Part shown: in pieces, positions 14,646-46,354 of the stretch | Position numbering within the stretch: the first letter of the stretch is position 1 | Layout: each line of letters starts with the position of its first letter | NCBI GenBank assembly: GCA_965203325.1 | Contig: OZ241875.1 | Span: 4,000,001 to 4,064,000, forward strand | Length of the DNA stretch: 64,000 nucleotides | From: a bacterium | GTDB lineage: Bacteria > UBA8248 | Direction of reading: 5' to 3' | Position numbers and translations under genes: made by a program | The notes under the pieces: generated by a model | What the model was told of the DNA's origin: nothing | The model's input: the letters and a program-made list of their open reading frames with translations, nothing else | Databases searched by the model: none

Positions 14646-15621
14646 CTACTTCGCTTTATCCAGAATCCCCGTCGCCTCCAGGTCCTTTCGGAACGCGTCC
14701 TTCTCGCGCTGCGTCAGGGGCACGATGGGCGGGCGCGGCTCGCCAGCCGGCAGGCCGAGCAGCTTCGTCCATTCCTTGAGATACGCCGTCGTGCGTCCGT
14801 TCGGGCCCGTCGTGAAGTACTTCTTGCGGACCGTCCGCAGGGGTTCGAGCGAGTAGTTGATCTGCCAGGCCTTCTCCGTGTCGCCCGCCATCGCGGCTTC
14901 GTAGTAGTCGCGGATCGGCGTGTAGCCCGGCGTCTGGAAGAGATAAGGAACAGGGGAGGACATGTGCACCTGCATGCCCAGATGCAGCAGGCTCACGAGG
15001 AAGTTCTCCTCGTTCGGGTCGCAGACGACGATCTCATCCCCCACGCGGCGTCGCACCTCGCTCTGGTGTGCCATGCTCGGAACCGCGTTCTTGATGCAGC
15101 AGATGTTCTCGAGCGTACAGAGCCGCTCGATGAGTTCGGGGCTGAGCGTGGTTCCCGATTTCGGCTGGTTGAACAGCGAGAGGCCGATGTCTATCTGATC
15201 GCAGATGGTCTTGAAGTAGAGAAAAATCTCGTCGTCATCGTGCGCGCCGTAGACCGGGTTGATCATGATGGCGTAATCCGCCCCGACTTCCTCGGCGTGT
15301 TTGGTGAGTTCGACGGCTTCCTTGATGTTGATGTGCGGGGTGTGGGGGGATGGTCTGCGCGCCGCCCCGGCTCTCCTCGCAGACGATGTGCTGCACGCGC
15401 TTTCGCTCCTCGGGCGAGAGCGACCAGTACTCGCCCATCAGCCCATTGCAGAAAAACCCGTCTATCTTCAGATCGTCGATGCAGGTGCGGACGATCTTGC
15501 GAAGGCCCTCCTCGTCCAGTTCGCCCTCGGGCGTGAAGGGCGTCGTGAGCGCGGCCCAGACGCCCGTCATGTGTTCCCTGCAATACGCTTTCGCTTCCGA
15601 TTTGGTGTAATTCATGTTCAA
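14646..15621 (-). pseudogene. DHDPS/N-acetylneuraminate lyase family aldolase, +1 frameshift in a G6 run (15344-15349)
   Basis: Removing one base joins AALTTPF...NGLMGE...AQTIP to HTPHINIKEAVELTKHAEEVGADYAIMINP...IKN; may be a sequencing error. Confidence 0.8.
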
Positions 15622-15942: not shown

Positions 15943-17361
15943 CTACCCGGACATCTTCCCGGCCAGGGACTCGAACGCCATCTGGAACGGCGCTTCGGGC
16001 GCGCGGAGGACGCCCGCGCCTATCTGTCCTACGCCCGGCTCGCGGTGGGCGATGCCCGTGTTGATGACGGGGTAGATGCCCGTCTCGATCACCTTGCGCA
16101 CGTCGACCCCGGTCGGCGCGCCCGCGAAATCAAGGGCGGGCAGGGTGTAATCGCGGCTCCGCGCCCAGGTGATGCCGTACATCTCGTTCGTCGCCTGAAA
16201 GGCCTCCGCCGTCGAGCCGCCCACGAACTCGACGATGGCGGGCGCCGCTGCCATCGCGAAGCCGCCGACGCCGAGCGTTTCCATGATCGCCGAATCGCCA
16301 ATGTCGGGATTGGCGTCTTCCTGCGAATAGCCCGGGAAGAACAGGCCGACGGGATTTTTCGCGGGCGCCGTGAACCACCTATCCCCCAAGCCGGCGACCC
16401 TGATGCCGAAATCCGTCCCGTTGCGCGACATGGCGTAGACCAAGGAGCTGCCCTCGACCCCCGCCATGGTGTCGAGGCTCGCCTTGGCGGCGGGCATCGC
16501 GAGGTTCAGGAAGAAGTGATCGTTGCCCGCGAGGAATTCCGCCGCGCGGGAGATCACGCCGGTGTCGCTGACAGAATCCGCGAGCCAGGGCATGAGGGTG
16601 CGGGCGACCGTGGAGGTGGCCGCGACGTTCCGGTTGTGCGCCTCATCGCCCATCTGCAGGGCGCGCGCGATCACGTTTTTGATGTCCAGCCCCTCCGGCA
16701 TGGCGCGAAGCGCCGCGCGCAGGGCGGGGGCGAGTTCGTCCGCCATCCATTTCAGGCGCGCCAGCACGTCTTCTGAATAGGCGCCATAGCGCAGCACCTT
16801 GCCCAGACCCTCGTTCAGCGTACAATAGGCCCTCCCGCCGCCGCCGAGTTCCTCAGGCGCCCGGTTTTCGATGATGCTCACCGGCATCGAGGGCGACACC
16901 ACGCCCGCCATCGGCCCCACCGACGAGTGGTGGTGGCAGGGCTCGAAGGTGATTTCTCCGCTTGCGCAGAGTTTTTCGGCCGCCTCCGCGTCCTGCGCCC
17001 AGCCTTCGAGAAGCGCCGCGCCGATCATCGCGCCCTTGAGAGGGCCGGACATTCTATCCCAGGCGATGGGAGGGCCCGCGTGCAGGAGGGTGCGCTCGCC
17101 CATGCCGGGCACCTCGTCCATGGCTGTCCCGATATCCACCCAAACGGGTCTGGCCGCCTGAAGGCGTTCGATGGCGATGTCGTTGGCCGCATCGCAAGCG
17201 GCCAGTCGGTCGAGGTGTTCGATCATGTCGGGGTCTCCTCCGGCGGGGGGGCGCCAGTCCACCTGCACCACGGGGGCGTTCTGCGCGGCCAGGCTCTCCG
17301 CGAACAGCTCCACGCCGACGTTGGCGACGCGGACGCCTTCCAGCAAGTTTTTCGCGCTCAT
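15943..17361 (-). CDS. DUF1116/YlbE family protein (oxamate carbamoyltransferase subunit AllG-like)
   Basis: VDWRPPAGGD, LLHAGPP, PCHHHSSVGPMAG, LNEGLGKVLRYGAY, MGDEAHNRN, PDIGDSAI.E, INTGIAH..PGVGQIGAG; ATG 17361 overlaps the upstream stop. Confidence 0.88.
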   Translation of the reverse strand: MSAKNLLEGVRVANVGVELFAESLAAQNAPVVQVDWRPPAGGDPDMIEHLDRLAACDAANDIAIERLQAARPVWVDIGTAMDEVPGMGERTLLHAGPPIAWDRMSGPLKGAMIGAALLEGWAQDAEAAEKLCASGEITFEPCHHHSSVGPMAGVVSPSMPVSIIENRAPEELGGGGRAYCTLNEGLGKVLRYGAYSEDVLARLKWMADELAPALRAALRAMPEGLDIKNVIARALQMGDEAHNRNVAATSTVARTLMPWLADSVSDTGVISRAAEFLAGNDHFFLNLAMPAAKASLDTMAGVEGSSLVYAMSRNGTDFGIRVAGLGDRWFTAPAKNPVGLFFPGYSQEDANPDIGDSAIMETLGVGGFAMAAAPAIVEFVGGSTAEAFQATNEMYGITWARSRDYTLPALDFAGAPTGVDVRKVIETGIYPVINTGIAHREPGVGQIGAGVLRAPEAPFQMAFESLAGKMSG

Positions 17362-18914
17362 CCGCCTAGTCCCTCGAGTGCGGCGGCAGCGGCGAGACAC
17401 GCCTCGGCGTGCGTATCCGCCACCAGGACGCCGGCCTCTCGTAACCTCGCGCGCTGCGCCTTCAGACCCTGCGGGTCGCCCTCTGTGCCCGTCACCGAGC
17501 CGATGAACAGGACACCGGGACTCGACTCCTGGGTCTCCACAATCGCCTTCGCCGCCTCTCCCGCCGGGTCTTCATGCGCGCCGAGACCCAGCACCACGTC
17601 GAAGAGCACGACCGCCGTTTCGGGGTCCCCCGCTTCCTGAACGATGCGCGCGCTTCTGGGCGCGGGGTCGATCATGGGATGGGGTTTCCCCCGCGTAAAG
17701 AGGTCGTCGCCCATGTCCACGACCGCGTGGCCTTCCGATTTCCGGGGGTCGGGCATTTGTCCGCTTATTTTATCGAGGGGCGCGTTGGAGGAAATCCCCG
17801 GAATAAATTCGCCGATTATCGCCTGCGCCTCGGCGCACAGCGTCCCGCCCGTGTAGACGCCGCGCAGGAACCGGCGGCCATGCGCGCGCGCGTGGCTCCA
17901 TCCGGCGATTCTCTCTCTCGCATCGGAGTCGAGTTCAGGAGCCGCCGGGTTGGCCCGTCCTCCGCTCAGCGAGACGGCGAGCCGCCCCGCTTCGGCGAGC
18001 GAGTCCGGCGCGTAAAGACCGAGATGCACGAGGATATCCTCGTTCCAGTCCCCGACGAAATGAACGACGGCGGGTTTTCCGCAAGTGGCCGTTGCTTCCA
18101 GTATCTTCCCCAAAGCGGCGGGTTCGGGCGGTTTTCCGAGTACGAGGAGAACCTCCGTCGCCGCATCCTCGCTCAAGGTCTCGATCGCCTGGATCATGGC
18201 GAGGCCGCCGACGGCGTCGGTGACGTCGCGCCCCCCTGTTCCCAGCGCGCAGGTGATTCCCCCGCCCGAGGCGTCGATGGCGGCCATGGCCTCCTGAATC
18301 CCCGTTCCCGCAGCGCCGACGATACCGATTCCGCCGGGACGCACCACGTTGCAGAAACCTAAGCCCACGCCTGCGATGTGCGCCGTGCCGCAGTCGGGGC
18401 CCATGACGAGCAAGCCCTTATCGCGCCCAGTTTGCTTGAGCGCCACCTCGTCTTCCACCGATACGTTGTCGCTGAAGATGAGGCAGTGGAGGCCTTTATT
18501 GAGCGCGCGTTCGGCCTCGCGGCGCACGCTCGGGCCGGGAACCGAGAAAAGGGCGAGGTTGATGAGCGGGTCTTCCCCGAGCGCCGCGTCGAGCGTGGGT
18601 GCGGAGAGGCTCGCGAGCGCTCCCGCTTCGCCGCTCGTGCGGGGAGCGGTGAGCGCCGCTTCCATGGCGGCGAGCTCTTCCTGCGCCGTCTGCGTGTCTT
18701 GCGCCTCGGCGACGAGGACGAGGTCGTTCGGGCCGGCGCCTTTCGCTTCTTGTGAGAGAAGGCCGCTCGATGCGAGTTGTTCCAGGTTCATTGGCGTGCC
18801 CATGAGGGCCGCCGCTTGCCTGATGTGAGTCTTCTCCGAGGCGGCGGCGCTGATTCGCATGAGCTTCACCGAATCGTGGTACGCGCCGCTTAAGACGCGG
18901 ACGGCCAGCGCCAT
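17358..18914 (-). CDS. fdrA: FdrA-like acyl-CoA synthetase-fold protein (AllF-like)
   Basis: YHDSVKLM, MGTPMN, FSDNV, VMGPDCGTA, GTGGRD, GGTLC.EA, DMGDD.FTRGKPHPMIDP. Confidence 0.88.
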   Translation of the reverse strand: MALAVRVLSGAYHDSVKLMRISAAASEKTHIRQAAALMGTPMNLEQLASSGLLSQEAKGAGPNDLVLVAEAQDTQTAQEELAAMEAALTAPRTSGEAGALASLSAPTLDAALGEDPLINLALFSVPGPSVRREAERALNKGLHCLIFSDNVSVEDEVALKQTGRDKGLLVMGPDCGTAHIAGVGLGFCNVVRPGGIGIVGAAGTGIQEAMAAIDASGGGITCALGTGGRDVTDAVGGLAMIQAIETLSEDAATEVLLVLGKPPEPAALGKILEATATCGKPAVVHFVGDWNEDILVHLGLYAPDSLAEAGRLAVSLSGGRANPAAPELDSDARERIAGWSHARAHGRRFLRGVYTGGTLCAEAQAIIGEFIPGISSNAPLDKISGQMPDPRKSEGHAVVDMGDDLFTRGKPHPMIDPAPRSARIVQEAGDPETAVVLFDVVLGLGAHEDPAGEAAKAIVETQESSPGVLFIGSVTGTEGDPQGLKAQRARLREAGVLVADTHAEACLAAAAALEGLGG

Positions 18915-18934
18915 ATCAATCGCTCCCCGGGAGG

Positions 18935-19654
18935 CTAGTCGTCGATGATCGCCACCGCGCGAATGGGGGAGCCCGACATGCCCCGGAACTTGATGGGCAG
19001 CACCGAGAGCTTGAACCCGTGGGACTTGGGGATCAGGTTCAGGTTGATCATGTTCTCGATGTGGCAGTAGTCCTTCTCCAGCATGACCCGGTGGGCCTCC
19101 CAGTAGCTGCGCGTCTCGTGCATCTTCCATATCGGAACGTCCCAGCCGCTCGCGTCTATCCCCATCACGCGGATGCCGTTGTCGATGAGGTAGTGGGTCG
19201 CCTCGGCGCTCATGCCGGGCTGGTTCATGGTGTAGTCGGGGTTCGTCTGCCAGTCCACGCTCGCGTCGGTGCGGATGAGCACGATGTCGAGCGGCTTGAG
19301 GGTGTAGTCGATCTTCTGGAGCGCGCCTTCCACGTCCGCCGCCGTGATGGCGTAGCCCGATTCCCTGTCGGTGAAGTCGAGGACGACGCCGTCCGAAAGA
19401 CACCATTCGAGCGGGATGCGCTCGGTCGTGAAGGCGTCGGGGTTGTTGTGCCAGGGGGAGTCGATGTGCGTGCCCGTGTGGTCGCTCATGAAGATGACGC
19501 AGTGGTTCGTCACGATGGGGGCGCCGTAGTTAATCGAGCCCGTCCGCCTTGCCACGGTGTCCCAGTCTTCATCGACGGTGAGGGAGGGGCCGGGCAGGTC
19601 CGGGTAAATCGGCATGTCCCGGTATATTTCCATGCTCAGATCGATCAATTCCAT
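18935..19654 (-). CDS. Cyclase (kynurenine formamidase-like) metal-dependent amidohydrolase
   Basis: HTGTHIDSPWH motif, GIDA..WD, HIENM.NL, GSPIRAVA. Confidence 0.88.
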   Translation of the reverse strand: MELIDLSMEIYRDMPIYPDLPGPSLTVDEDWDTVARRTGSINYGAPIVTNHCVIFMSDHTGTHIDSPWHNNPDAFTTERIPLEWCLSDGVVLDFTDRESGYAITAADVEGALQKIDYTLKPLDIVLIRTDASVDWQTNPDYTMNQPGMSAEATHYLIDNGIRVMGIDASGWDVPIWKMHETRSYWEAHRVMLEKDYCHIENMINLNLIPKSHGFKLSVLPIKFRGMSGSPIRAVAIIDD

Positions 19655-19840
19655 CTCGGAGGTCTCCTTTTGGATGAAGAAAAGAAACGATCTCCATCTT
19701 GGGTGGTCGGTTCATTAGGGGAAGCGTTTGCAATGCGCGCATTATGTATGAACCCGAAGCGGCGGGCAACGCATCGGCTTTCGTCGGGTCGTGTCCGCCC
19801 GCAAGGGGAGGGAGGGTCAAACAGCCCCCTGCATGAAAAC

Positions 19841-20103
19841 CACCCCCCCCTACCCCCCCTTGACAGGGGGGTAAAAAAGGCCGACGCCCCGGCAAATGGA
19901 GGATATGAAAAAGGCGACGCCCACCGCCGGGCCAGGGGTTTTGTTTTTTCTTGCCCCCCTGACAAGGGGGGGTAGGGGGGGTTGCCTTTATCCCCTGAGG
20001 AGGGGGAGCTTTTTCAACAGCCCCGCATCAGTCGCGATTGCCCTTCGATACAAACGCTCCTTTCTCAGTCGCGTCTGACCTTCGGCGGCTACTCAGGGTG
20101 AGG
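19841..20103. repeat. Family-A REP doublet, TTTTTCAACAGCCCC end and family-E element
   Basis: Arms at about 19842-19872 and 19955-19985; CCCTTCGATAC...CTACTCAGGGTGAG at 20041-20102. Confidence 0.7.
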
Positions 20104-20345
20104 GGTGTTGGGGACGGCTACTCGGGGTGAGGTTGATACGGCGGCTGCGCGCGACGAGGGGAACGGGCCGCAGGGAAAGGGGCTCGACGTTACATGCCGG
20201 AAACATGAAATCTGTATATTTTGAATTTGGGTATACATGAGGCATACTGGCGGAAAGCGACAAAGATAATACCTGAGTCTCCCGGGCAGCGACGCACGGA
20301 GACGGGTTTTCGCATTTTCACACCACATGCGGGGAGTGCGCCTTC

Positions 20346-21287
20346 TTGTCCCTCTTGTTCGACATATCCCTTTTCCAGCTCACGATGCTCATGATGGCCC
20401 CGCTCATCATCGCGTGCCTGGGCGAGACCATCATCGAGCGCTCGGGGATTCTGAACGTCGGCATCGAGGGGGTCGTGACGCTCGGTTCGGTGACAGGCTT
20501 TCTGCTCACCTACTACTCGGGCAGCGCGATCATCGGCTGCATCGTCGCGGCGCTCTCGGGGAGCGTCCTCACGCTGCTCCTGGCGTATTTCTCGATCACC
20601 CTGCGGGCGAACCAGATCGTCATCGGGCTGGGGATATTCGTCCTGGGGCTGGGGATATCGCCCACCATCTACCGGCTGGCGGTGGGCGTCGTGCAATCCA
20701 TCCCCCAGGTGCCGACGTTAAAGGAGATACACATCCCGCTCCTGGGGAGCATTCCCTTCATCGGCGAGATTTTCTTCGCGCAAAACGGACTGGTCTACAT
20801 GTCCTATTTCCTGGTGGCTGCGGTGAGTTTCTTCCTCTTCAAGACGCCGCTGGGTCTGAGGCTGCGCGCCTGCGGGGAGAACCCCCGTGCGGCGGACACG
20901 GTGGGGATAGACGTCGCCCGCATGCGCTACGGCGCGTGCGCCGTGGGCGGGCTGTTCCTGGGCGTGGCGGGCGCATACCTGCCGCTCGTGATCTCGGGCT
21001 CGTTCACGGACAACATCGTGAACGGAAGAGGGTGGCTCGCCCTGATGCTGGTGATATTCGGCCGCTGGGTGCCGATATGGTCGTTCGTCGGCGCGCTGCT
21101 GTTCGCCTACGTGGACGCCTTCCAGTTCAAGGTCAACGCCCTGCCGCAGTTCGCCAAGATCATTCCGCCGCAATTCCTGCTCATGCTGCCGTACGTGTTC
21201 GCCATGATAGTTCTGGTTCAGGTCGCCCGGGGGGCGGAGAGCCCCCGCGCGCTGACGAGGCCATACGACCGTGAAGCCCGGGATTGA
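20346..21287 (+). CDS. ABC transporter permease (nucleoside/BMP type)
   Basis: LGE...ERSGILNVGIEG, GLRLRACGENPRAADTVGIDV, GRGWLAL, MLPY. Confidence 0.9.
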   Translation: MSLLFDISLFQLTMLMMAPLIIACLGETIIERSGILNVGIEGVVTLGSVTGFLLTYYSGSAIIGCIVAALSGSVLTLLLAYFSITLRANQIVIGLGIFVLGLGISPTIYRLAVGVVQSIPQVPTLKEIHIPLLGSIPFIGEIFFAQNGLVYMSYFLVAAVSFFLFKTPLGLRLRACGENPRAADTVGIDVARMRYGACAVGGLFLGVAGAYLPLVISGSFTDNIVNGRGWLALMLVIFGRWVPIWSFVGALLFAYVDAFQFKVNALPQFAKIIPPQFLLMLPYVFAMIVLVQVARGAESPRALTRPYDREARD

Positions 21288-21332
21288 CCCACGTCCGGGC
21301 AATCGTGCTTTCTCATCAAGGAGGAGTGTGAA

Positions 21333-22334
21333 ATGAAAACCAAATGGACACGCCGATTGTTCTTCGCCGCCGCCGCGCTCACGGCCCTGGCGCTGGCCGT
21401 ACCCGGCCCTGCCCTCGCCGCGAAGGCGCACAAGTTCGCCATCATCCTGCCCGGACCCATCGAGGATGCGGACTACAACTTCCGGGGCTACGAGGTGGCG
21501 CAGGACGTCAAGAAGATGTTCAAGATCGAAACCTCCTACTCCGAGCGCATCTCGCCCGCGGACGCCGAGCGGGTGGCGCGCGAGTACATCTCCTCGGGCT
21601 TCACCATCATCGGCTTCCACGGCGGGCAGTACGTCCGGCTCGTGCAGAAGCTGGCCCCGAAGTTCCCCGAGGTGACTTTCATCATGGAGAGTTCGGCGAA
21701 ATTCAAGGTTCCCAAGAACGTCTGGAACATTCACCGCCACTACTTCCAGGCCTTCTATCCCTTCGGCGTGCTGGCCGGCCTCGCCACGAAGACGAACAAG
21801 GTGAGCGTTATCGCGGGCATCCCGCTCCCGGACTTCAAGGCTTCCATCAACACCATCTCGGACGCGCTCAAGGCGACCAACCCCAAGGCGGAGCTCACCT
21901 ACTCCTTCACCGGAAACCAGAACGATCCGGTCAAGGCGCGCCAGACCGCCGACGCCATGATCGCGGGCGGCGTCGACTTCATCATCAACATGGTGAACCT
22001 CGGCGTGTACGGCGTGGTCGAGGCCGCCAAGAAGTCGAAGCGCAAGGTGCTGGTCACCACGTTCTACACCGACAAGACGGACAAGGCGCCCAAGCACTTC
22101 GCCGGCACGCTGATCATCGATTTCCGGCCGCCCTACCGCAAGGCCCTGGCGGGCATCCTGAAAGGATCGCCCGGGGGATACGTGCCGATGCAGCTCGGGG
22201 TCGGGTTCGAGATCACCTCTCTGGGCAACGTATCGGCCGAGGCGATGAAGCGGACCAAGGAGGCGTATGAAAAGGTGCGCGCCGGGAAGATCAAACCCCG
22301 GCTGGAGATGAAGAAGGTCATGTTGGCGAAATAG
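21333..22334 (+). CDS. BMP-family ABC substrate-binding protein
   Basis: Signal peptide with RRLF (Tat-like), LPGPIEDADYN, FTGNQNDPVKA. Confidence 0.85.
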   Translation: MKTKWTRRLFFAAAALTALALAVPGPALAAKAHKFAIILPGPIEDADYNFRGYEVAQDVKKMFKIETSYSERISPADAERVAREYISSGFTIIGFHGGQYVRLVQKLAPKFPEVTFIMESSAKFKVPKNVWNIHRHYFQAFYPFGVLAGLATKTNKVSVIAGIPLPDFKASINTISDALKATNPKAELTYSFTGNQNDPVKARQTADAMIAGGVDFIINMVNLGVYGVVEAAKKSKRKVLVTTFYTDKTDKAPKHFAGTLIIDFRPPYRKALAGILKGSPGGYVPMQLGVGFEITSLGNVSAEAMKRTKEAYEKVRAGKIKPRLEMKKVMLAK

Positions 22335-22392
22335 GGCATGTGAGCGCCCCGCCCCAATCTTCCGGGCGGGGCGGGGCGCGAGAACGGAAGGC

Positions 22393-23943
22393 GTGATGAC
22401 GGAAAAAATGAGTTCCTGCGTCGAGATGTACGGCGTCAGCAAGTCCTTCGGGGAAGTCCGCGCCCTGGACGCGGTCGACTTCGAGGCCGCAGAGGGGGAG
22501 ATCCACGCCCTCCTGGGCGAGAACGGCGCGGGCAAGACCACGCTCATGAACATCCTGAGCGGCCTCTACCGCATGGATGAGGGGCAAATCGCGATCGAAG
22601 GGCGCGAGGTGGACATCCACTCTCCCCAGGATGCGATCGCGGTCGGCGTCGGGATGGTCCACCAGCACGTGGAGCTGATCGGCAACTTCACCGCGCTCGA
22701 GAACATCCTGCTGGGCCGCGAGGGTTCGCGCTGGCGGCTCGACGTCGAAGCCCGGCGCGGTTCGGTGGAGGAACTTGCGGCGAATTACGGCCTCTCCATC
22801 CCGCTGGATGAGGGGGTGAAGACCCTGCCTGCGGGCATCCAGCAGAAAGTGGAGATTTTGAAAGCCCTCTACCACGGCGCGGACATCCTGATCCTGGACG
22901 AGCCGACGACCATGCTGACCCCCCACGAGGTGGACGGGCTGTTCACCATCCTCAAGTCTTTCGCCAAGGGCGGGCTGACGGTCGTCTTCATCACGCACAA
23001 GATCCAGGAGGTGCTGGACAACTGCGACCGCATCACCGTGTTCCGAGGCGGGCGCAAGATCGACACCATCCCCCGCGAGGAGGCCACCCGCGAAATACTC
23101 GTCCAGATGATGATGGGCGAGCGCGGCATGCCGCCCGAGGGCGAGCGGCCGGCCGGACCCTCGGCGGCTCTGGAGGGGGGTCCCGCTCTGTCGGTGCGGG
23201 GGGTGCGCACCTCGGCGAAGTGGGGGGTGCCGCTCAAGGACGTCGCCTTCGACGTCCCCCGGGGGCTCATCGTCGGCATGGCGGGCATCTCGGGAAACGG
23301 CCAGAAGGAACTGGCGGAAGCCCTGGCCGGGTTGATCGAAACGGAAGAGGGGGAGGTTCACCTGGACGGTGAGCAAGTATCAAACCTCTCGGTGGCCGGG
23401 CGCATCGCGCGGGGGATGAGCCTCCTGCCGCAGGACAGGATAGAGGAGGGGATTCTGCCGGGCCTGAGCCTGGCGGAGAACTTCGTGCTCGGACTCCACC
23501 CCCACATCTTCAGGCGGCGCGGCGTGTTCGAGCGCGAGGCCGCCTTCGAGCTCGGCAGGAACGCGATTGCGGAATTCAACATCTTAGCTAGAAACGAGCA
23601 CGTGCCGGCCGCGCACCTCTCGGGCGGGAACATCCAGAAGACCATCGTGGCGCGCTCGGTCATGCTCGCCCACAAGACGGGCGGGAAGGTGATGATCGCG
23701 AACAACCCCACGCGCGGGCTGGACGTGATGGCCGCCTCGTTCGTGCACGGCCGGCTGCGCGAGCTTCGCGCGGGCGGGGCGGGCGTGCTGCTGATATCGG
23801 AAGACCTGGACGAGCTGTGCCTGATGAGCGACCGCATCGTCGTCATCTATGCGGGGGAGATTCTCGGCGCCTTCGACGGCCCCGAATACGACATCTACCG
23901 GATAGGCGCGCTCATGGCGGGCCACAGAGAAGAGGTTTCCTGA
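22393..23943 (+). CDS. ABC transporter ATPase (double domain)
   Basis: GENGAGKTT, ILDEPT, LSGGNIQK, PTRGLDV, ISEDLDE. Confidence 0.93.
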   Translation: MMTEKMSSCVEMYGVSKSFGEVRALDAVDFEAAEGEIHALLGENGAGKTTLMNILSGLYRMDEGQIAIEGREVDIHSPQDAIAVGVGMVHQHVELIGNFTALENILLGREGSRWRLDVEARRGSVEELAANYGLSIPLDEGVKTLPAGIQQKVEILKALYHGADILILDEPTTMLTPHEVDGLFTILKSFAKGGLTVVFITHKIQEVLDNCDRITVFRGGRKIDTIPREEATREILVQMMMGERGMPPEGERPAGPSAALEGGPALSVRGVRTSAKWGVPLKDVAFDVPRGLIVGMAGISGNGQKELAEALAGLIETEEGEVHLDGEQVSNLSVAGRIARGMSLLPQDRIEEGILPGLSLAENFVLGLHPHIFRRRGVFEREAAFELGRNAIAEFNILARNEHVPAAHLSGGNIQKTIVARSVMLAHKTGGKVMIANNPTRGLDVMAASFVHGRLRELRAGGAGVLLISEDLDELCLMSDRIVVIYAGEILGAFDGPEYDIYRIGALMAGHREEVS

Positions 23944-23944
23944 G

Positions 23945-25009
23945 ATGGCGGCGGGCGTGAGCGAGAAGAAAAAGATCGCGATGGAGTTCGCCGTCACCTA
24001 CGCGGCGGCGGGGGCGCTGGCGCTCGCCTGCGGGGCCGTCTTCATCGTCGCCTTCGGCGGCGACGTGCTCGTCGCGCTCGGCACGGTGCTTCGCTCCTCG
24101 CTCGGCACGTGGGGCGGGTTCGCGCAGACGCTCAACAAGTTCTGCCCGCTCCTGCTCGGCTCGCTCGCGGTGGCCTTCGGGATGCGGGGCGGGCACTTCA
24201 ACATCGGCGTGGACGGGCAGATCTACGCGGGCGCCATCGGCATGACGGGCACGGCCTTCGCGCTCGAGGGCATGAACCTCCCCTGGCCGGTCTTCGTGCC
24301 CCTGGGGATTCTGGGCGGAATCGCCGGCGGGTGGTTCTGGGGCTTCATCCCCGGCATCCTGCGCGTGCGTTTTCAGGTGAGCGAGATTTTCGTGACGGTG
24401 ATGCTGAACTTCGTCGCGCTCTATCTAGTGGACTACCTCGCGAACGGCCCCTGGAACGATCCGCTCGCGGGAGAGGCCATCTCGCTCCCGATCCCCGACG
24501 CCTCGGTGCTGCCCCAGGTGATGCCGAGGGCCGGCGCGCACGCGGGCTTCATCATCGCGCTGGCGGCGGCGGTCGGCATGTACTTCTTCATGACGCGCAC
24601 CATCGCCGGCTACGAGATACGCGCGGTGGGCGACAACCCCCGCGCCGCGCGCTTCGGCGGCATCAACGTCGCGCGCGTCACGCTCATCATCATGCCGACC
24701 TGCGGCGCGCTCTCGGGTCTCGCGGGGGCCATCGAGGTCTCGGGCTTCCACCAGAGCCTGTTATTGGGCATCAGCGGTGCGGAGGGCGCCCCCAACTACG
24801 GCGCGATGGCCATCCTCATCGCCGTCATCGGGCGCAACAACCCGCTCGGCGTCACGATAGCCGCCGCGGTGTTCGCCGTGCTCGTCTCGGGTTCTGATTC
24901 CTTACAGCGCAGCATCGGCCTCCCCGGCGCGGCGGTGTTCGTCTTCCAGGCGATCATCGTGCTCACGGTCGTCTTCGTGCAGGCGCGGCGGAGCATCAAG
25001 GCGGGGTAG
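23945..25009 (+). CDS. ABC transporter permease (nucleoside/BMP type)
   Basis: FNIGVDGQ, SEI..TVMLNF, GYEIRAVGDNP.AA. Confidence 0.9.
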   Translation: MAAGVSEKKKIAMEFAVTYAAAGALALACGAVFIVAFGGDVLVALGTVLRSSLGTWGGFAQTLNKFCPLLLGSLAVAFGMRGGHFNIGVDGQIYAGAIGMTGTAFALEGMNLPWPVFVPLGILGGIAGGWFWGFIPGILRVRFQVSEIFVTVMLNFVALYLVDYLANGPWNDPLAGEAISLPIPDASVLPQVMPRAGAHAGFIIALAAAVGMYFFMTRTIAGYEIRAVGDNPRAARFGGINVARVTLIIMPTCGALSGLAGAIEVSGFHQSLLLGISGAEGAPNYGAMAILIAVIGRNNPLGVTIAAAVFAVLVSGSDSLQRSIGLPGAAVFVFQAIIVLTVVFVQARRSIKAG

Positions 25010-25081
25010 GGGGGAGACCACCGCCAGCGAGATATGCAATTACTTCCCCCTTGAGGGAATTCCCCACCGACGAAAGAAGGA

Positions 25082-25327
25082 TTCACTCCCCCCTTGAGGG
25101 TCTGGCTTCCCGAGGGGAAAGCCAGACGATGAAGCCGAGCGTTTTTGCGAAGGCTGATGCGGTGGGGGGTAAAACGCGTTTTATCGCCATCCGAATTATC
25201 CCCCCCACCGATTCGCTTGCGGGCTTACGCCCTTACCTCATCGACTCCCCCTCAAGGGGGGAGTGAAGTCCATTCTACGGGGAGAGGGGTTGCGGTTTTG
25301 TAGGGGCGGTTCGCGAACCGCCCCTAC
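25082..25327. repeat. Family-B element (25082-25267) plus GTAG REP (25300-25327)
   Basis: TTCACTCCCCCCTTGAGGG...CCCTCAAGGGGGGAGTGAA; GTAGGGGCGGTTCGCGAACCGCCCCTAC. Confidence 0.75.
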
Positions 25328-25364
25328 GGGGTCGGTGGCCGGGATGACGAACGATGGCCTGCCC

Positions 25365-26468
25365 CTACACCGCCCGTACGACCGCCGCGACGGGGCCGCC
25401 GCCGGGAGGCCCCTGGTGTTCGGCACCGCCCGAGACGTAGGTCATCGTGTCGCCGACGATGGATGACACCACGGCGTTCACGACAGAGCGGGCGTGGCGC
25501 GTGTTGTTGATGTCCGAGTCATCGAGCATCGTGTGCCGCCGCCCGCGCACCAGGCCGTCGGGGGAGGCCTCGCACTTGGCGAAGACGTTCACGACGCGCG
25601 CGCGCTGCTCGGGCGCCAGCGACCACTCGAACGCGACCCCTGCGTTCACGATGGCCTCGCGCACGGCGTCGCGGTCGATGGCGTCTCCCATCACGCTGTG
25701 GCCGACGACGAGGTCGCCGCCCCAGGCCGCGCTGTTACCGATGACCATCGCCTCGTTGCACATGAGCTCGATTCCCGCCGAAGTCGAGGCGACGCCGGAT
25801 TGGAGCGACCAGTCCGCACAGATCACCTCATCGCTCAACCGGCTCTCGGCCACCTCGCCCGCCGCCAGGGCGACCCCCAGCGCCGATGCGCCGCGCGAGT
25901 AGCCCATCGATTTATACGTGTCCTCCGTGCAGACGCTCTCCCCGCGCCTGGCGGCGTCCGCCATGCGCTCGCCTGTCAAGAGCGGGCACTTCACCTGGAC
26001 GAAGTGCAGGTCTTCGGTGCTCTCGATCTGCGCCTCTTTCATGAGCCTTCGCACGAGGTTCGCCGTCGCGCGCACCTGCGCCATGCGGCCCATTTCTTCG
26101 GGCAGGAAATCCGCCGTGTGGCCCGAGGCGATGGCGAGGCGCTTGGCGCGCCCGTCGCCCGCGCCGTTCTCCGACTTCGTGAACACGGAAAAATGCGGGC
26201 ACATGACGCCTTCCGTTCCGCCGGACATGATAAGGGCGATCTGCGCCTCCACCTCCTCGCGGGTCTTGCCCATCGCGCGTGAGAAATAATCGAGCAGGAC
26301 GAAGTTGCTGAACCCGCGCGAGAAATCGTTCACGCAGCCGTTGCCCTCGGTCTTGCCCATGATGCCGACGACATCTTCCGCCCGGCATTCGCCCCCCTCG
26401 ATGAGAGCGGCCACGCCTGAGATGTCGTCGGGCGAGTCCATCGCCACGCGGAACAAGTCGGCCTGCAT
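25365..26468 (-). CDS. atzD: Ring-opening amidohydrolase, cyanuric acid hydrolase (AtzD/TrzD)-like
   Basis: GKTEGNGCVNDF, MSGGTEG, FVQVKCPLLT, STSAG, YVSGGAEHQGP; these match cyanuric acid hydrolase rather than barbiturase signatures. Confidence 0.85.
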   Translation of the reverse strand: MQADLFRVAMDSPDDISGVAALIEGGECRAEDVVGIMGKTEGNGCVNDFSRGFSNFVLLDYFSRAMGKTREEVEAQIALIMSGGTEGVMCPHFSVFTKSENGAGDGRAKRLAIASGHTADFLPEEMGRMAQVRATANLVRRLMKEAQIESTEDLHFVQVKCPLLTGERMADAARRGESVCTEDTYKSMGYSRGASALGVALAAGEVAESRLSDEVICADWSLQSGVASTSAGIELMCNEAMVIGNSAAWGGDLVVGHSVMGDAIDRDAVREAIVNAGVAFEWSLAPEQRARVVNVFAKCEASPDGLVRGRRHTMLDDSDINNTRHARSVVNAVVSSIVGDTMTYVSGGAEHQGPPGGGPVAAVVRAV

Positions 26469-26679
26469 CTTGCGTCCCCCTTTCGCAAAGGCGCGCGTCT
26501 GCGCGCTCGTGGATACCGGAATTTTTATGGGGAAAAACTAGCACCGCAGGGAGAGCCTGTGCAAAGGGTCAATCGCGACCGAGGAGGGAGCGATTGCAGG
26601 TTTTGTTGTAGCGGACAGGCCTCCGTGCCTGTCCGGGGTTGCGACCTGTCCGAAAGGGTCGCCGCTCTCGCCTTGAAAA

Positions 26680-26795
26680 CCAACCCCCCTACCCCCCCTT
26701 GTCAGGGGGGTAAGAAAAATCAAAACCCCTTCTCCGGCGGGGGCGCATCGCCTTTTTATACCCCCCTGTCAAGGGGGGGTAGGGGGGGTTGCCTT
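26680..26795. repeat. Family-A REP doublet
   Basis: CAACCCCCCTACCCCCCCTTGTCAGGGGGG...CCCCCCTGTCAAGGGGGGGTAGGGGGGGTTG; internal sequence nearly identical to the 7251-7347 copy. Confidence 0.8.
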
Positions 26796-26841
26796 TGTCC
26801 CCTGGCAAGGGGGGAGTGAATGCCTCTCACGCGGCCCATCC

Positions 26842-27804
26842 TCACCTCTTATATATACAAGTCCCCGCATCCCCGCGCAGGGCGGGCACCGCATCCTCCA
26901 AAGCCGCGATGTGCACGCGCTCGCCGCCACCCTCGAGAAAGCGGATCGCCGCCTCTATCTTGGGGCCCATGCTGCCGGGCGGGAAGTGGCCCTGGGCGTG
27001 GTATCCCTTTATCTCGTCGAGGGAGATTCTTTCCAACTCGCGCTGCTCGGGCGTCCCGAAGTGGACGGCCACCCTCGGCACGGCGGTGAGGATCATCATC
27101 GTCTCGATCCCCAGCACGTTCGCCATGAGGGCCGAGGTCAAATCCTTGTCGATGACGGCGGCCAGCCCGCGCCGCGCGCCGTCGGCTTCGCGCACGACGG
27201 GGATGCCCCCGCCGCCGCCCGCGATGACCACCGCCCCGCTTTTGGCGATCGTCTCGATGAGCGAGATGTCCACGATGTGTTTCGGCGCAGGCGAGGGAAC
27301 GACGTGCCGCCAGCCGCGTCCTGCGTCCTCGCGGAACGTCCAGCCCATCTCGCGCTCATAGCGCCTCGCCTCTTCTTCCGTGTAGGTGTAGCCCACGAAC
27401 TTGGTCGGCGCGTCGAAGGCCGGGTCCGCCGGGTCGACCTCCACCTGCGTCAGGAGACACACCACGTGGCGGGGGTCACCCGCGCGCCTGAGCGCGTTCT
27501 CGAACGCCTGCATGAGGAGATAGGCGATGCCCCCCTGGCTGTGGGCGACGCAGATGTCGAGCGTCATGGGGGTGACCTGCTCGCTCGACATCGCCTGGCG
27601 CATGAGTATCTTGCCGACGACGGGGCCGTTCCCGTGCGTGATGATGAGTTCGTTTTTGAGCTGCAAGAGGGGGAGCAGGGCACGGCCGGTCGCTGCGGCG
27701 ATGGCGGCCTGTTCCGCCGCGGTGCCGCGTATCTCGGGCGGGTGGGTCGCGTTGCCGCCGACGGCGACGAGCAGGCGGCCTGGAAGATCGGGCGGGGGAG
27801 CCAT
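26842..27804 (-). CDS. arcC: Carbamate kinase
   Basis: VAVGGNA, ITHGNGPVVG, SQGGIAY, PTKFVG, VVPSP.P, GGGGIPV, VIDKDL, GSMGPKI. Confidence 0.92.
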   Translation of the reverse strand: MAPPPDLPGRLLVAVGGNATHPPEIRGTAAEQAAIAAATGRALLPLLQLKNELIITHGNGPVVGKILMRQAMSSEQVTPMTLDICVAHSQGGIAYLLMQAFENALRRAGDPRHVVCLLTQVEVDPADPAFDAPTKFVGYTYTEEEARRYEREMGWTFREDAGRGWRHVVPSPAPKHIVDISLIETIAKSGAVVIAGGGGGIPVVREADGARRGLAAVIDKDLTSALMANVLGIETMMILTAVPRVAVHFGTPEQRELERISLDEIKGYHAQGHFPPGSMGPKIEAAIRFLEGGGERVHIAALEDAVPALRGDAGTCIYKR

Positions 27805-27972
27805 GTCGGATTCTCCCGATGAACCCCCGGCCTCGGGACGCGGTGGCATACAAGTGCAGTCGCAAGACCCGCGGCGCGCCCCGGGCCGGGAGTGACATCT
27901 TACAACAACGGCGGGGTCGGGGGGTAGGGAATTTTATGACGAATCCCTTCCACATCGATCGGGTTCGACCCC

Positions 27973-28191
27973 GCCGTCATTCCGGCGAAAGCCGGAATCC
28001 ATTTTGACTTTCCAACCAGGCGGGGTGGCCATAACCTTGTTGTTGCGCGGCGTCCGGATGCGGAATTCAGAGAATTCGCCTTTCGTTTTTGTGTTCGATT
28101 CCGATCCTCCCCGCCAGGAGTAAAGACGTCCGAACGAGGAGGAGAAAAGGCAAAGGCGAAAATGGATTCCGGCTTTCGCCGGAATGACGGC
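27973..28191. repeat. CGTC-type REP pair (33-bp perfect inverted repeat)
   Basis: GCCGTCATTCCGGCGAAAGCCGGAATCCATTTT at 27973-28005 and its reverse complement at 28159-28191. Confidence 0.85.
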
Positions 28192-28288
28192 AAGAGCGAA
28201 GGGCCGCATGAATGGGATTGTCCAAAAGCCTGGTGGGGCATTGTTTTACCCCCTCTCTCCAGTCGGAATCGACGCCGGAATGACGGCT

Positions 28289-28316
28289 GTAGGGGCGGTT
28301 CGCGAACCGCCCCTAC
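28289..28316. repeat. GTAG-type REP palindrome
   Basis: GTAGGGGCGGTTCGCGAACCGCCCCTAC, identical to 25300-25327. Confidence 0.8.
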
Positions 28317-28348
28317 GGAAACCCCACACCCTCCTTCTCCGCTCCCCC

Positions 28349-28429
28349 CAAACCCTCATTCCCCGCCCGCGTCAAACCCGCATTCATCGCTCCCGTCAAA
28401 CCCTCATTGATCAATCGCGTTTGACCCCC
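28349..28429 (+). repeat. 24-bp-period tandem repeat ending in TCGCGTTTGACCCCC
   Basis: CAAACCC(T/G)CATT at 28349, 28373 and 28397. Confidence 0.65.
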
Positions 28430-28509
28430 GCTCCCCGATAATTCATAATCGAACCATCACTGGATCATGCGACCCGTTTCAGAAGTTGCGCGCAAGTTCA
28501 AATAAAGGG

Positions 28510-28539: not shown

Positions 28540-28714
28540 CATATATGTCAAGCAACAGACGTGAGCAGTAATCACAGGGCCGCCCGCTCGATGCAACACT
28601 GACCCATCCGTGAAGAACGGAGAGAGCGGGAACCCACGAGAGAACCTGCTCTCACGAATTGCCTGACAGCCCGGAAGACGACGACCCAGAAGGTTCCGGG
28701 CATAAGCAGTAAAA

Positions 28715-29379
28715 ATCACGAGGCTAGAGGACTCAACCCACGATGCAGCACGCCACAAAACCCCCTCCAGTTTCGTGATCAATAGAAGAGCAGGAAAGCG
28801 GCAGGCCCGGCGGAAGCCGGGGAAGCAGTAAATCACGAGGCCAGAGGACTCAACCCACGGCGAACCACGCCACCAATCCCCCTCCAGTCTCGTGAAGCGT
28901 AAGGCCCGGCGGCCCGCGCAGTCGGCGGCGCGCCGGGAAGAACGGCAAGCCCGGCGAAAGCCGGGAGATGAAATATCACGAGGCCAGAGGACTCAACTCA
29001 TGATGCACCACGCCACAAATCCCTCTCCAGTCTCGTGATCGATTCAAGGAAAGGCCCGGCAGGAGCCTGAAACGAAAAATTCGGCTCGGGGCCAGGAAGT
29101 TTTTTATCACGAGGCTGGAGGACTCAAACATCATGAATCCTGACCAGAATCCCACACCAGTCTCGTGGATAAGCCGGTCACCGGCCCGGGCGCGTGAGTC
29201 CGGGCCGGCGGCCGCGCGCTCCGGCCCCGGTTCGATGATTCGATGAAACGATAGAAGCCCGATAACGAAGGATAAGGAAAGTCGGAAAGTCAAAGAAAGG
29301 AGGTCAAATCCGAACACTACAGTTTTGTTGGTTGCAAAGCTCTTTAATATCACGAGACTAGGAGGACTCAAAAGTGATG
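28715..29379 (+). repeat. Array of four ~65-nt hairpin units plus a fifth half-unit that is the lipoprotein RBS
   Basis: ATCACGAG(G/A)C..GAGGACTCAA at 28715, 28832, 28975, 29106 and 29349; 3' arms CCAGT(C/T)TCGTG ending about 28779, 28896, 29039 and 29170. Confidence 0.9.
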
Positions 29380-44349: not shown

Positions 44350-45507
44350 TTAGGATTTTCTTTTGAGTTGAACCCTTTTGCTGCCCGTACCCTCGCTCTG
44401 CGCCTCGCCCTTGCGGCGGTGGCGGATGAGTTCGGCGACGATGGCGACGCCGATCTCTCCCGGCGTGTCGGCGCCGATGTCGAGGCCGATGGGCGCATGG
44501 ACGCGCTCGATGAGTTCGCCCCTGGCGTAGCCCTTGTCCTGGAGGTGGCGATAGGTGAGCAGCACCTTGCTTTTCGAGCCTATCATCCCGATGTAGCGCG
44601 CGGCCGTCTTCATGGCCCATTCGAGGACGACCTCGTCGTTCGAGTGCCCCCGTGTGATGATGGCCAGATAGTCGGACTCGTCGACCGGTATTTTCTCGAA
44701 GATTTCGGGGAACTCGCCGACATAGAACGACTCCGCCATCGGGAAGCGCTCCTTGTTGGCGAACGAGGGCCGATCCTCGACTATCGAGACCCGGAAGCCG
44801 GCGAGATAGGCCGCCTGCGCAACGCAGAACGACACGTGCCCTCCGCCGAAAATATAGACGAGCGGCTGGCCGGATATGGGTTCGACGAAAATTTCGGTTG
44901 CGTCCGTGAGCGTCGAACGCTTTTCTCCCGCGCGCGCGGCGTCCCTGTTGAACTGCATGAGGGTGGGACTGCCGTTGCGGATGATTTGCGTGCTCTCCGC
45001 CCAGATTTCCGTTGAATAGTCGGGAATCTCGCCTACGGCGCTGCCGTCGCGCCGGAAGAGCATCTTTCTGGCCTCAGGCGCCGGGACGTCGAGGTCGCCC
45101 GGCTGAACGATGGTCGCCAGCGCAGCGCTGCCGCCCTGGTTTCTGATGCGGTTGATCTCGTCGAGCAACTCTTCCTGAAACGCCTGGAAGGGCTCCACGA
45201 GTATTTCCACCACGCCGCCGCAGATGTGGCCGCTGTCTTCGGCTTCCTGCTGGGTGAGGTCGAACCGGAGCTTTTCGGGTTCGCCCGTCTCCAATACGCT
45301 CATCGCGGTTTCCCACACTTCGGCCTCGAGGCAGCCGCCGCCGACGGTGCCCTCCGTGCTGCCGTCCTCGCGCACGAGCATCTTCGCGTCGCCGCTCATG
45401 GGCGCGGACCCCTTGCGGGCCACGACGGTGGCGAGCGCGCCGCTCTGGCCGTCTCCCTTGAGCTTCGCCATCTCTTTGAATACGTCCTTGCTCATTCCTT
45501 GCTCCAC
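44350..45507 (-). CDS. xdhC: XdhC/CoxF-family molybdenum cofactor chaperone
   Basis: LATVV..KGSAP, GTVGGGCLE, ICGG, FGGGHV, YIGMIGS, APIGLDIGA.TP.EI. Confidence 0.9.
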   Translation of the reverse strand: MEQGMSKDVFKEMAKLKGDGQSGALATVVARKGSAPMSGDAKMLVREDGSTEGTVGGGCLEAEVWETAMSVLETGEPEKLRFDLTQQEAEDSGHICGGVVEILVEPFQAFQEELLDEINRIRNQGGSAALATIVQPGDLDVPAPEARKMLFRRDGSAVGEIPDYSTEIWAESTQIIRNGSPTLMQFNRDAARAGEKRSTLTDATEIFVEPISGQPLVYIFGGGHVSFCVAQAAYLAGFRVSIVEDRPSFANKERFPMAESFYVGEFPEIFEKIPVDESDYLAIITRGHSNDEVVLEWAMKTAARYIGMIGSKSKVLLTYRHLQDKGYARGELIERVHAPIGLDIGADTPGEIGVAIVAELIRHRRKGEAQSEGTGSKRVQLKRKS

Positions 45508-45526
45508 CTACGTGAAGTGATGATCG

Positions 45527-46354
45527 CTACGCATCCGGTGCGATCCGCATGAATACTTCACATTCGTTGTTCATACAAGATGTGAAGAGGATGCCGTCCG
45601 CCGGACCATGAGGCTTTCCGGCCAACTCCCATATAGTATAGGCCGTTTTTTCGAGTTTTTCCAGCGAAGTTTCCATATCCGCCTTGTTGATGACGATCCA
45701 CTTGCGCGCGCCGGCCTCCGCCTTGTGAAAAAGACCGAAAGGGTGTGCGCACAGCTTTCCTACGGCCTCGACCGTTATCTCCTCGTCGATCTGCAGGCTG
45801 CAAATGTGCGAAAGCGCCTCGGGACGAAAGACGTGCGTCTGATTCAAGGGCGCGCCCAGCGCGTCCAGCCCCACGACGCCCAGCACGGCGTCGAGATTTT
45901 CGGGCAGTACGGGCTCATCGCGACCCGGGGCCTTGATGGGCAGTCTTCTCGCCCCGTCCGCCTCGATGAGCGTGAGGGCATTACCCAGCGTGAAGTGGGC
46001 AATTTCCGAAGGCGTAAAACCGCTCAGCTTCATGCGTTGCTCGCTCTCCAGGCCCGGAATCGGGGCTTTCCCCTCGCGGCGGCGTGCGAACCACGAGACG
46101 CCGCATGCGTCCATGTAGGGGCGGAGGTTCTTTGCGAGCGTCGCGGCGTCGCCCAGGGCGAGCCCGAGCCCTTCCTCGGGCAGCGGCGCGAAAATTTTTG
46201 TTGTCGTCGTGAGAATCGCAGGTTTTCCGGTTTGCGCATGAAACTGCCTGGCGATGGCCGTCAGCAGGCTCGTTTTTCCGCCTCCGCCGACCGCCGCGAC
46301 GCTCTGGCCAGGCCCGACCCCGAGGGAGCGGACAATGTCGTCTTCCGCTACCAA
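45527..46354 (-). CDS. yqeC: Selenium-cofactor system protein YqeC
   Basis: VGGGGKTS, LTTTTKI, LIEADGA..LPIKAP...EPV, INKAD; probable TTG start at 46354. Confidence 0.85.
   Translation of the reverse strand: MVAEDDIVRSLGVGPGQSVAAVGGGGKTSLLTAIARQFHAQTGKPAILTTTTKIFAPLPEEGLGLALGDAATLAKNLRPYMDACGVSWFARRREGKAPIPGLESEQRMKLSGFTPSEIAHFTLGNALTLIEADGARRLPIKAPGRDEPVLPENLDAVLGVVGLDALGAPLNQTHVFRPEALSHICSLQIDEEITVEAVGKLCAHPFGLFHKAEAGARKWIVINKADMETSLEKLEKTAYTIWELAGKPHGPADGILFTSCMNNECEVFMRIAPDA

Follow-up and report, generated by a model that had tools for sequence, protein, structure and literature searches.

Cyanuric acid hydrolase genes linked to allF, allG and carbamate kinase genes predict an ATP-yielding lower pathway for cyanuric acid

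What becomes of the opened ring in a bacterium whose cyanuric acid hydrolase gene lies close to genes for an AllF/AllG-type carbamoyltransferase and a carbamate kinase? The question is raised by a 64,000-nucleotide stretch of bacterial DNA (the window: GCA_965203325.1, contig OZ241875.1, positions 4,000,001–4,064,000 of the forward strand). Locus coordinates are window positions; elsewhere G numbers denote genomes (G000 is the window's own and C1 its contig) and L numbers denote loci. An initial annotation of the window described a cyclase gene with fdrA (allF) and ylbE (allG), a BMP-type ATP-binding cassette (ABC) transporter, and a carbamate kinase gene followed by an atzD-like gene, all within 12 kb (15943–27804). 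Profile scans found every one of these genes present, intact and unbroken, in that order. Cyanuric acid is a common end product of triazine herbicides, melamine and chlorinated disinfectants, and it also arises when uric acid is oxidised chemically (PMC7948467, PMC6219798). The product of AtzD, 1-carboxybiuret, turns into biuret with a half-life of about 20 min (PMC7948467, PMC6219798). Both described lower pathways, one through biuret (BiuH, AtzF) and one through carboxybiuret (AtzEG, AtzH, AtzF), are purely hydrolytic and give no ATP (PMC6219798). The window holds a conserved set of known families whose combination predicts a lower pathway for cyanurate that is undescribed and ATP-yielding. 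We favor the reading that this island salvages nitrogen and energy from cyanuric acid through AllFGH phosphorolysis followed by ATP formation, with related oxidised-purine ring compounds probably salvaged as well.

The ring-opening enzyme is encoded by a 367-residue atzD/trzD-type gene (25365–26468, minus strand). Its product scored 522 bits against NF052395 (cut-off 360) and 510 bits against TIGR02714 (cut-off 153). The best match in the PDB was TrzD 5T13 (485 bits, compared with 265 bits for barbiturase 5HWE), and the protein is 64% identical to TrzD of plasmid pSR8 and 58% to the Moorella mulderi orthologue. Five positions part cyanuric acid hydrolases (CAHs; R195, T321, R325, G345, G346 in AtzD numbering) from barbiturases (N195, H321, K325, V345, S/A346) (PMC3758960). 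The window enzyme has the CAH residue at all five (R192, T323, R327, G347, G348) and the barbiturase residue at none, which rules out a barbiturase identity. All 14 published active-site residues are kept, as are the three Ser-Lys-Arg sets, located via shared motifs in the alignment (K39/R51/S82, K160/R192/S230 and K298/R327/S346, against K42/R54/S85, K162/R195/S233 and K296/R325/S344 in AtzD). The enzyme thus shares family and active site with TrzD (5T13), the Moorella thermoacetica CAH (6BUM) and AtzD (4BVQ; EC 3.5.2.15), and by family score and active site it is a cyanuric acid hydrolase. Among the substrates put forward in the initial annotation, cyanurate fits this active site; barbiturate is unlikely given the CAH-type residues at all five specificity positions. 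In a quick tree, built with no bootstrap, the window AtzD joined TrzD and Chloroflexota enzymes (support 87, not strong), and allG-linked AtzDs fell in at least four places, again with support that was not strong.

A second gene of the AtzD family (Toblerone fold) lies elsewhere in the genome behind an amidohydrolase (C1:3978221–3979315, L010). Its product has a mixed signature (Asn195, Thr321, Arg325, Ala345) and no metal Glu; of the 22 genus relatives, 20 have a 42–45% match of this kind. Because Asn replaces R195 and Ala replaces G345, it probably acts on another substrate; together with the missing metal Glu, these changes rule the gene out as a back-up CAH.

The predicted carbamoyl-transferring partners are encoded on the same strand. 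AllF (17358–18914, 518 residues) has CoA-binding and CoA-ligase domains, scored 447 bits against NF004760 (cut-off 433), matched PDB entry 3DMY at E=6e-78, and is 39% identical both to Escherichia coli AllF and to YahF. It retains the motifs GPDCG and PHPMIDP. AllG (15943–17361; YlbE/DUF1116, PF06545, 314 bits) is a long form of 472 residues and is 51% identical to E. coli AllG and 43% to YahG. Over its first ~55 residues it resembles the C-terminal domain found in E. coli AllF (43% to residues 506–554). This domain split matches YahF/YahG; we nevertheless rejected a YahFG identity for the pair, as AllG is closer to E. coli AllG. In the quick tree, the window AllG joined most CAH- and barbiturase-linked AllGs (support 86, not strong). 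The 320-residue carbamate kinase (26842–27804, minus strand) is the only one in the genome, carries the motifs GGNA, HGNGP, VIDKD and GSMGPK, and scored 308 bits against NF009007 (cut-off 266) and 333 bits against TIGR00746, just under its cut-off of 358.

E. coli AllFGH interconverts oxalurate plus phosphate and oxamate plus carbamoyl phosphate; full activity needs all three genes, and AllFG without AllH restored 7% of oxamate formation (PMC11326118, Table 3). Here allF, allG and allH do not form one operon. The initial annotation saw no allH, which holds locally, but an intact copy, the sole allH of the genome, lies about 400 kb away at C1:3616010–3616936, before a ketopantoate-reductase-like gene. 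AllH and the kinase are 24% and 40% identical, respectively, to their E. coli counterparts. Another allG of the genome (C1:2954666–2957022) lies behind a cytosine-deaminase-like gene, with a LIV-type ABC importer running divergently from it; another allF (C1:246134–247817) is flanked by a 61-residue gene and an amidase gene.

We then asked whether the genome, a single contig of 4.39 Mb with 95.5% completeness, encodes a known hydrolytic route. The initial annotation reported no biuH, atzE or atzF in the window, and a scan of the 45 window open reading frames bore this out: none of these genes, nor allH, was among them, and genome-wide matches all fall outside the window. BiuH was not found in the genome, where the best BiuH score among four isochorismatase-family proteins was 117 (cut-off 370), from a RutB-like protein. 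No AtzE exceeded its cut-off, AtzH (PF11533) was not found, and the PF13318 (AtzG) search gave no match in this genome, nor did it in the control genomes. Urea carboxylase and uricase had no match over cut-off in the genome; hence, of the allophanate sources sought there (urea carboxylase, BiuH, AtzE, AtzH), none was found. An AtzF amidase domain is present (C1:3783150–3784361, 589 bits against a cut-off of 511), without an AtzF C-terminal domain in the genome; relatives L163 and L036 carry the latter as a gene of its own. A full urease operon with its own ABC importer also lies elsewhere in the genome. AllC (33%) and AllD (~31%) homologues are distant and lie outside the cluster, and AllE had no match in the genome. 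The genome search thus recovered no complete BiuH or AtzE route, one AtzF amidase domain and one allH.

Linkage within the lineage was followed in 60 relatives, 22 of them in the genus and 36 in the family. All 22 genus relatives have allH, 19 have the AtzF domain, 18 this allG, 15 the kinase and 14 this atzD. Among the 14 atzD-bearing genus relatives, 12 have atzD and this allG on one contig within 15 kb; in the other two, they lie on short separate contigs. The kinase is present in all 14 genus relatives with this atzD, compared with one of the eight without it. No BiuH was found in the 36 family relatives (E<=1e-40). Sister genera keep further pathway genes together: allH follows the kinase in L138–L141 and L148 and stands beside this allG in L162, allG and the kinase precede atzF and a separate AtzF C-terminal domain gene in L163, and atzF follows allG in G024. 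The presence of allH, atzF and the kinase beside this allG in sister genera suggests that these genes were once neighbours and that their dispersal in the window's genus is secondary. The closest AtzD relatives (among the best 79 of 262 loci) carry labels that include Nitrospinota and Ca. Tectomicrobia.

Of those 79 AtzD loci, 53 lie outside the lineage, and 50 outside genomes were searched (L070 and L049 come from one genome; L055 and L059 were omitted). allG lies within 10 kb of atzD in ten of them, spread over Bacillota, Actinomycetota, Chloroflexota and Pseudomonadota: Moorella mulderi, Enterococcus aquimarinus, two Bacillota metagenome-assembled genomes, Dactylosporangium, Naasia, three Chloroflexota and Melaminivora. 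In two of the ten (L048, L058), allG alone was seen. The set of atzD, allFG(H) and kinase thereby recurs in five phyla, the window's lineage included. The usual companions in the linked clusters are a PucR regulator, nucleobase permeases, a cytosine-deaminase-like enzyme and a transporter of ~415 residues. Linked and unlinked genomes tended to differ in their downstream genes. AtzF occurs in 1/10 linked versus 32/40 unlinked genomes, BiuH-like genes (E<=1e-60) in 3/10 versus 30/40, and either of the two in 3/10 versus 39/40; allH occurs anywhere in the genome in 10/10 versus 6/40. Two of the linked enzymes are near-copies of solved CAHs, as read from the alignment: Melaminivora AtzD (L049) is ~95% identical to TrzD 5T13, and M. 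mulderi AtzD (L054) is ~96% identical to M. thermoacetica CAH 6BUM. The gene clustering claimed in the initial annotation is thus conserved beyond chance, in the genus and in four other phyla, although the genes form three blocks rather than one operon.

Plasmids carry the same combination. On pSR8 of Aminobacter SR38, genes for a transporter, fdrA, DUF1116, trzD, arcC, a deaminase, a BMP protein, an ATPase, two permeases and DUF2877 run in one direction, which amounts to every part of the window locus except the cyclase, plus allH. The best matches of the pSR8 BMP protein and permeases in the window's genome are the window importer. The pSR8 deaminase, whose family call is just cytosine-deaminase-like, is presumably the ammelide deaminase TrzC. 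On a Klebsiella plasmid, atzF immediately precedes a pSR8-type block. Another atzD, distinct from this one, belongs to a unit ordered IS26-transporter-atzD-NCS2-allH-fdrA-allG-arcC-lysR-IS26; it makes up 46 of the 60 rows listed (132 plasmid records), with a DUF1116 gene ~5.3 kb off listed for 45 of the 46, and these rows are copies of one element and count as one event. Near-identical atzD genes with allFGH-arcC (L153 and 45 further plasmid rows), flanked by IS26 in the record examined, lie on enterobacterial plasmids, and several records come from drains, showers and clinical sources. Selection of the IS26 unit by chlorinated-cyanurate disinfectants would be a guess on our part.

Starting from allG (the best 80 of 469 metagenome loci, many of them short), we found a second kind of ring-opening partner. 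The AtzD-family genes there comprise one close window relative, one cluster seen three times (L189, L190, L193; 99.8% alike) and L229, whose protein is 81% identical to that of L189. The L189 enzyme is a true barbiturase (750 bits to 5HWE; N, H, K, V and S at all five signature positions). At both L189 and L229, the barbiturase gene has allH-allF-allG and the kinase as neighbours, along with genes for a carboxyltransferase and a family III CoA-transferase. Further genes at L189 encode an amidase, a xanthine-dehydrogenase-type enzyme, NCS2, PucR and a uracil phosphoribosyltransferase, and in Embleya NBC_00888 (L238) the same barbiturase-cluster genes, including a xanthine-dehydrogenase-type enzyme, lie within 25 kb. 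These loci can be read as converting uracil to barbiturate, then ureidomalonate, then malonamate plus carbamoyl phosphate; from their gene content, they likely represent an oxidative pyrimidine pathway free of ureidomalonase. AllFGH genes are therefore paired with two ring-openers, CAH and barbiturase, whose products share only a terminal CO-NH-CO-NH2 group with oxalurate. A further recurring operon (L169, L173, L185, L196) reads thiolase-small gene-allH-allF-allG-cyclase, with no AtzD-family gene seen; L169, L185 and L196 add a xanthine-dehydrogenase-type enzyme. The cyclase in operons of this type may stand in for a ring-opener or amidase.

In the pathway that we propose, the BMP ABC system would import the ring compound and AtzD, as established for its family, would open cyanurate to 1-carboxybiuret. 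AllF-AllG, with the distant AllH, would then pass the terminal carbamoyl group to phosphate, giving carbamoyl phosphate and allophanate, as the E. coli enzyme does with oxalurate. If carboxybiuret first decarboxylates, biuret would instead give carbamoyl phosphate and urea. Carbamate kinase would form ATP, ammonia and CO2, the established reaction of its family, and the stand-alone AtzF amidase domain, or urease, would free the remaining nitrogen. The net yield per ring would be three ammonia and at least one ATP, without BiuH or AtzE. As to the acylurea attacked first, carboxybiuret is a tentative choice, biuret is rather unlikely, and attack on allophanate only is hardly to be expected. With carboxybiuret as the donor, the allophanate left over would account for the AtzF domain of a genome where the search found no other source of allophanate, and for the position of atzF behind allG in relatives. 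In genomes without AtzF, a second round could perhaps convert allophanate to carbamate and carbamoyl phosphate, for up to two ATP per ring. The initial annotation had proposed ring opening, phosphorolysis and ATP formation, which comparative genomics supports well: the linkage proved conserved and the genome yielded no complete BiuH or AtzE route, so neither of the two outcomes named there as refuting was observed. Its phrase "instead of being fully hydrolysed" was too strong, since with an AtzF amidase domain and urease present, phosphorolysis probably takes one carbamoyl group and hydrolases finish the molecule.

Several observations weigh against a cyanurate pathway that runs through AllFGH. 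Activity of AllFGH has been demonstrated for oxalurate/oxamate only (PMC11326118). In the window, allF-allG is laid out as one block with the cyclase and not with atzD, and among the best 80 allG loci an AtzD-family gene occurs at five (three clusters) and the cyclase at 28, with no need of atzD. atzD was cleanly lost in G013, which keeps the kinase, ABC genes, cyclase, allF and allG, and both atzD and the kinase were lost in G009, which keeps the rest (loss in G004 and G018 was not judgeable, as contigs end at the locus). The next family (G041–G044) has BiuH-like genes, and there atzD, allG-kinase and allH lie apart from one another. The single allH persists in four genus relatives without this allG and lies together with a second allF/allG pair in G029, so it may serve that second pair. 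Of the genome's ~13 amidases, one reaches 384 bits against the AtzE cut-off of 426. BiuH-like genes occur in three of the ten linked outside genomes, inside the cluster in two (L065, L077), where allophanate would remain as the AllFGH substrate. Finally, the outside genomes are related and their completeness is not stated, so that a Fisher p of 8e-5 for them overstates the difference, and the counts represent a tendency, not a test.

Alternatively, two modules may share a transporter and kinase. In such an arrangement, cyclase-AllF-AllG, ancestrally together with an ATP-dependent hydantoinase, would phosphorolyse another ureido compound (an N-carbamoyl amino acid from hydantoin or creatinine, formylbiuret or oxalurate), and the AtzD product would pass to an unrecognised amidase and AtzF or leak as biuret. 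The separate blocks, the retention of the module after atzD loss, the cyclase beside allG at 28 of the 80 loci and the AtzE-like amidase below its cut-off fit this arrangement, as does an operon of sister genera in which a fused, ATP-dependent hydantoinase/oxoprolinase (~1320 residues) precedes cyclase-allF-allG, often followed by the kinase (L024, L036, L126, L144, L147, L159–L163, L166), a layout that also counts against the cyanurate pathway. The window's genus, however, has no close hydantoinase copy (best 36–46%, versus 72–90% among orthologues); its kinase tracks atzD and lies directly upstream of it in 11 of the 14 relatives; and in pSR8, Moorella and the IS26 unit, the operon that holds allFG and the kinase also includes atzD but neither a cyclase nor a hydantoinase. 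The AtzE-like amidase occurs in 35 of 36 family genomes, those lacking atzD among them. We consider the two-module arrangement unlikely, though a serious contender. Both arrangements could hold at once, with one transcarbamylase supplied by several ring-openers and an importer of broad range.

The hydrolase might alternatively act on another natural ring, such as parabanate, and open it to oxalurate. This would demand no new chemistry of AllFGH, for which oxalurate is the proven substrate (PMC11326118), and it agrees with the identity of the window AllG to E. coli AllG and with the PucR regulators and nucleobase permeases that flank distant clusters. It is at odds with the intact three-fold CAH active site, with near-copies of assayed CAHs in the same context, and with the barbiturase linkage, which couples AllFGH to rings unable to give oxalurate; moreover, it is the genome's second AllG, not the window AllG, that groups with E. 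coli AllG in the quick tree (support 93). We judge this route improbable. Even less credible is the idea that AllF-AllG is not a carbamoyltransferase, for instance an acyl-phosphate- or acyl-CoA-forming enzyme as its CoA-ligase domains could suggest, or that it is a decaying relic without AllH, a view that the unlinked allH and the 7% restored in E. coli without AllH would favor. Against this, the window AllF has no GHAGA phosphohistidine motif. Both allF and allG are intact, with AllF 69–91% and AllG 77–96% identical in relatives, and allH is intact, is present in all genus relatives and adjoins this allG or this kinase in the sister genera noted above.

Returning to cyanurate salvage through AllFGH, the predicted chemistry is that of E. 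coli AllF-AllG-AllH with AllK (PMC11326118), in which an acylurea and phosphate give an amide and carbamoyl phosphate and then ATP. The present system differs in that it lacks an allD/allE context, has allH unlinked and is fed by a ring-opening hydrolase, and in the ~55-residue domain carried by AllG; its predicted substrate is carboxybiuret or biuret rather than oxalurate. With the known biuret and carboxybiuret routes (PMC6219798) it shares the first step and the AtzF amidase domain in the genome, whereas BiuH, AtzE and AtzH were not found here. The near-copies of TrzD and the Moorella CAH lie inside allFG-kinase operons; the window AtzD, known from sequence, lies in a three-block island with a cyclase. 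A similar set, allFGHK beside biuH/trtA and a BMP ABC importer, was reported in ammonia-oxidising archaea and comammox (PMC12625717); those nitrifier genomes have no atzD, and the authors read allFGHK as oxalurate degradation alongside the biuret route and not part of it. Our full-text literature searches returned no paper linking atzD, trzD or barbiturase to fdrA/DUF1116/allFGH, although the neighbourhood of fdrA, arcC and trzD may have been remarked on before. Within the accessible text of PMC7948467, a word search found no mention of FdrA, DUF1116 or carbamate kinase, and in that of PMC6557486 the words operon and carbamate gave no matches. The presence of fdrA and arcC beside trzD is plain in NCBI annotation.

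We give even chances to a broader proposal, that AllFGH is a general acylurea phosphorylase plugged behind different ring-openers. It would constitute a third, ATP-yielding lower pathway for cyanurate behind CAH, replace ureidomalonase behind barbiturase, represent the native context of TrzD and the Moorella CAH, and be cargo of the IS26 unit that has spread on enterobacterial plasmids. If AllFGH takes the opened ring, microbes would gain ATP from cyanuric acid, and genomes such as those of Moorella mulderi and Melaminivora CY1, which have a CAH and no detectable BiuH or AtzF, would be explained. It would also broaden an enzyme family that dates from a 2024 description and has a single known substrate, and offer a marker for triazine mineralisation missed by current gene lists. 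Cultured strains and plasmids carry the whole gene set.

The locus is arranged as cyclase-allF-allG (minus strand), the BMP-type ABC importer genes (plus) and kinase-atzD (minus), such that the first block diverges from the ABC genes and the last converges on them. The cyclase-family metal hydrolase (18935–19654, minus strand; 239 residues, PF04199, kynurenine formamidase/isatin hydrolase fold) has the motif HxGTHxDxPxH at position 59. Its closest solved structures are distant (best E=2e-14), and plasmid relatives (best 48%) pointed to no substrate; it is 89–99% identical in relatives whose AllF is 69–91%. A gap of 20 bases separates the cyclase gene from allF, and the start of allG overlaps the allF stop by 4 bases. 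The divergent intergenic region (19655–20345) has copies of a dispersed hairpin repeat and, facing the cyclase gene, one promoter-like site; its four promoter-like sites, compared with 1.9 expected by chance, are consensus matches only. The importer comprises permease 1 (20346–21287; PF02653, 40% identical to a permease of the pSR8 trzD operon), a BMP/PnrA-family substrate-binding protein (21333–22334; PF02608, 29% to the pSR8 BMP protein), a two-domain ATPase (22396–23943; two PF00005 domains, 39% identical to the pSR8 ATPase, whose best match in the genome it is) and permease 2 (23945–25009; PF02653), all on the plus strand. Proteins of the BMP/PnrA family bind nucleosides and nucleobases. 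The kinase/atzD gap of 373 bases holds a terminator-like repeat hairpin and ranges from ~120 to 1070 bases among relatives. Dispersed hairpin repeats with terminator-like scores fill gaps at 19844–20007, 26684–26787, 25010–25364 and 27900–28440.

The ~415-residue membrane protein of the atzD-allFG clusters (34–80% alike) had no Pfam or NCBIfam match at the thresholds used. It occurs at L054:4830–6065, L065:8722–9966, L068:2178–3440, L070:1337–2587, L077:5156–6409, L048:1215–2540 and L049:5915–6952, and also in L152 and L153. Its atlas features resemble DcuC/DctM-type transporters, which makes it a candidate for cyanurate transport or exchange. The window's genome, where no copy was found, has the BMP importer instead.

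Of six RNA runs with a small proportion of shared sequence words, four hold contig pieces of relatives (~86–98% alike) over the cyclase, BMP, ATPase and permease genes and single listed pieces each over allG, atzD and the kinase; these pieces are contigs that may hold DNA and so give no evidence of expression level or habitat. Downstream of allG, a DapA-like aldolase gene (14646–15621, minus strand) is split by a frameshift near 15344 in a six-base homopolymer run; since RNA contigs of relatives from two runs lack one base at this spot, the split may reflect an assembly error or a recent slip. Genes for XdhC and YqeC, which belong to molybdo-hydroxylase maturation, lie 17 kb from the cluster at 44350–46354 (minus strand). 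A long hairpin leader (28571–29379) precedes a 949-residue lipoprotein-like gene and is unrelated to the cyanurate cluster. In one relative, a third cluster (L131, G005:C8:745000–764999) combines allG, allF, a small gene, a second allG, a 1076-residue carbamoyl-phosphate-synthase-large-chain-like gene and carbamate kinase.

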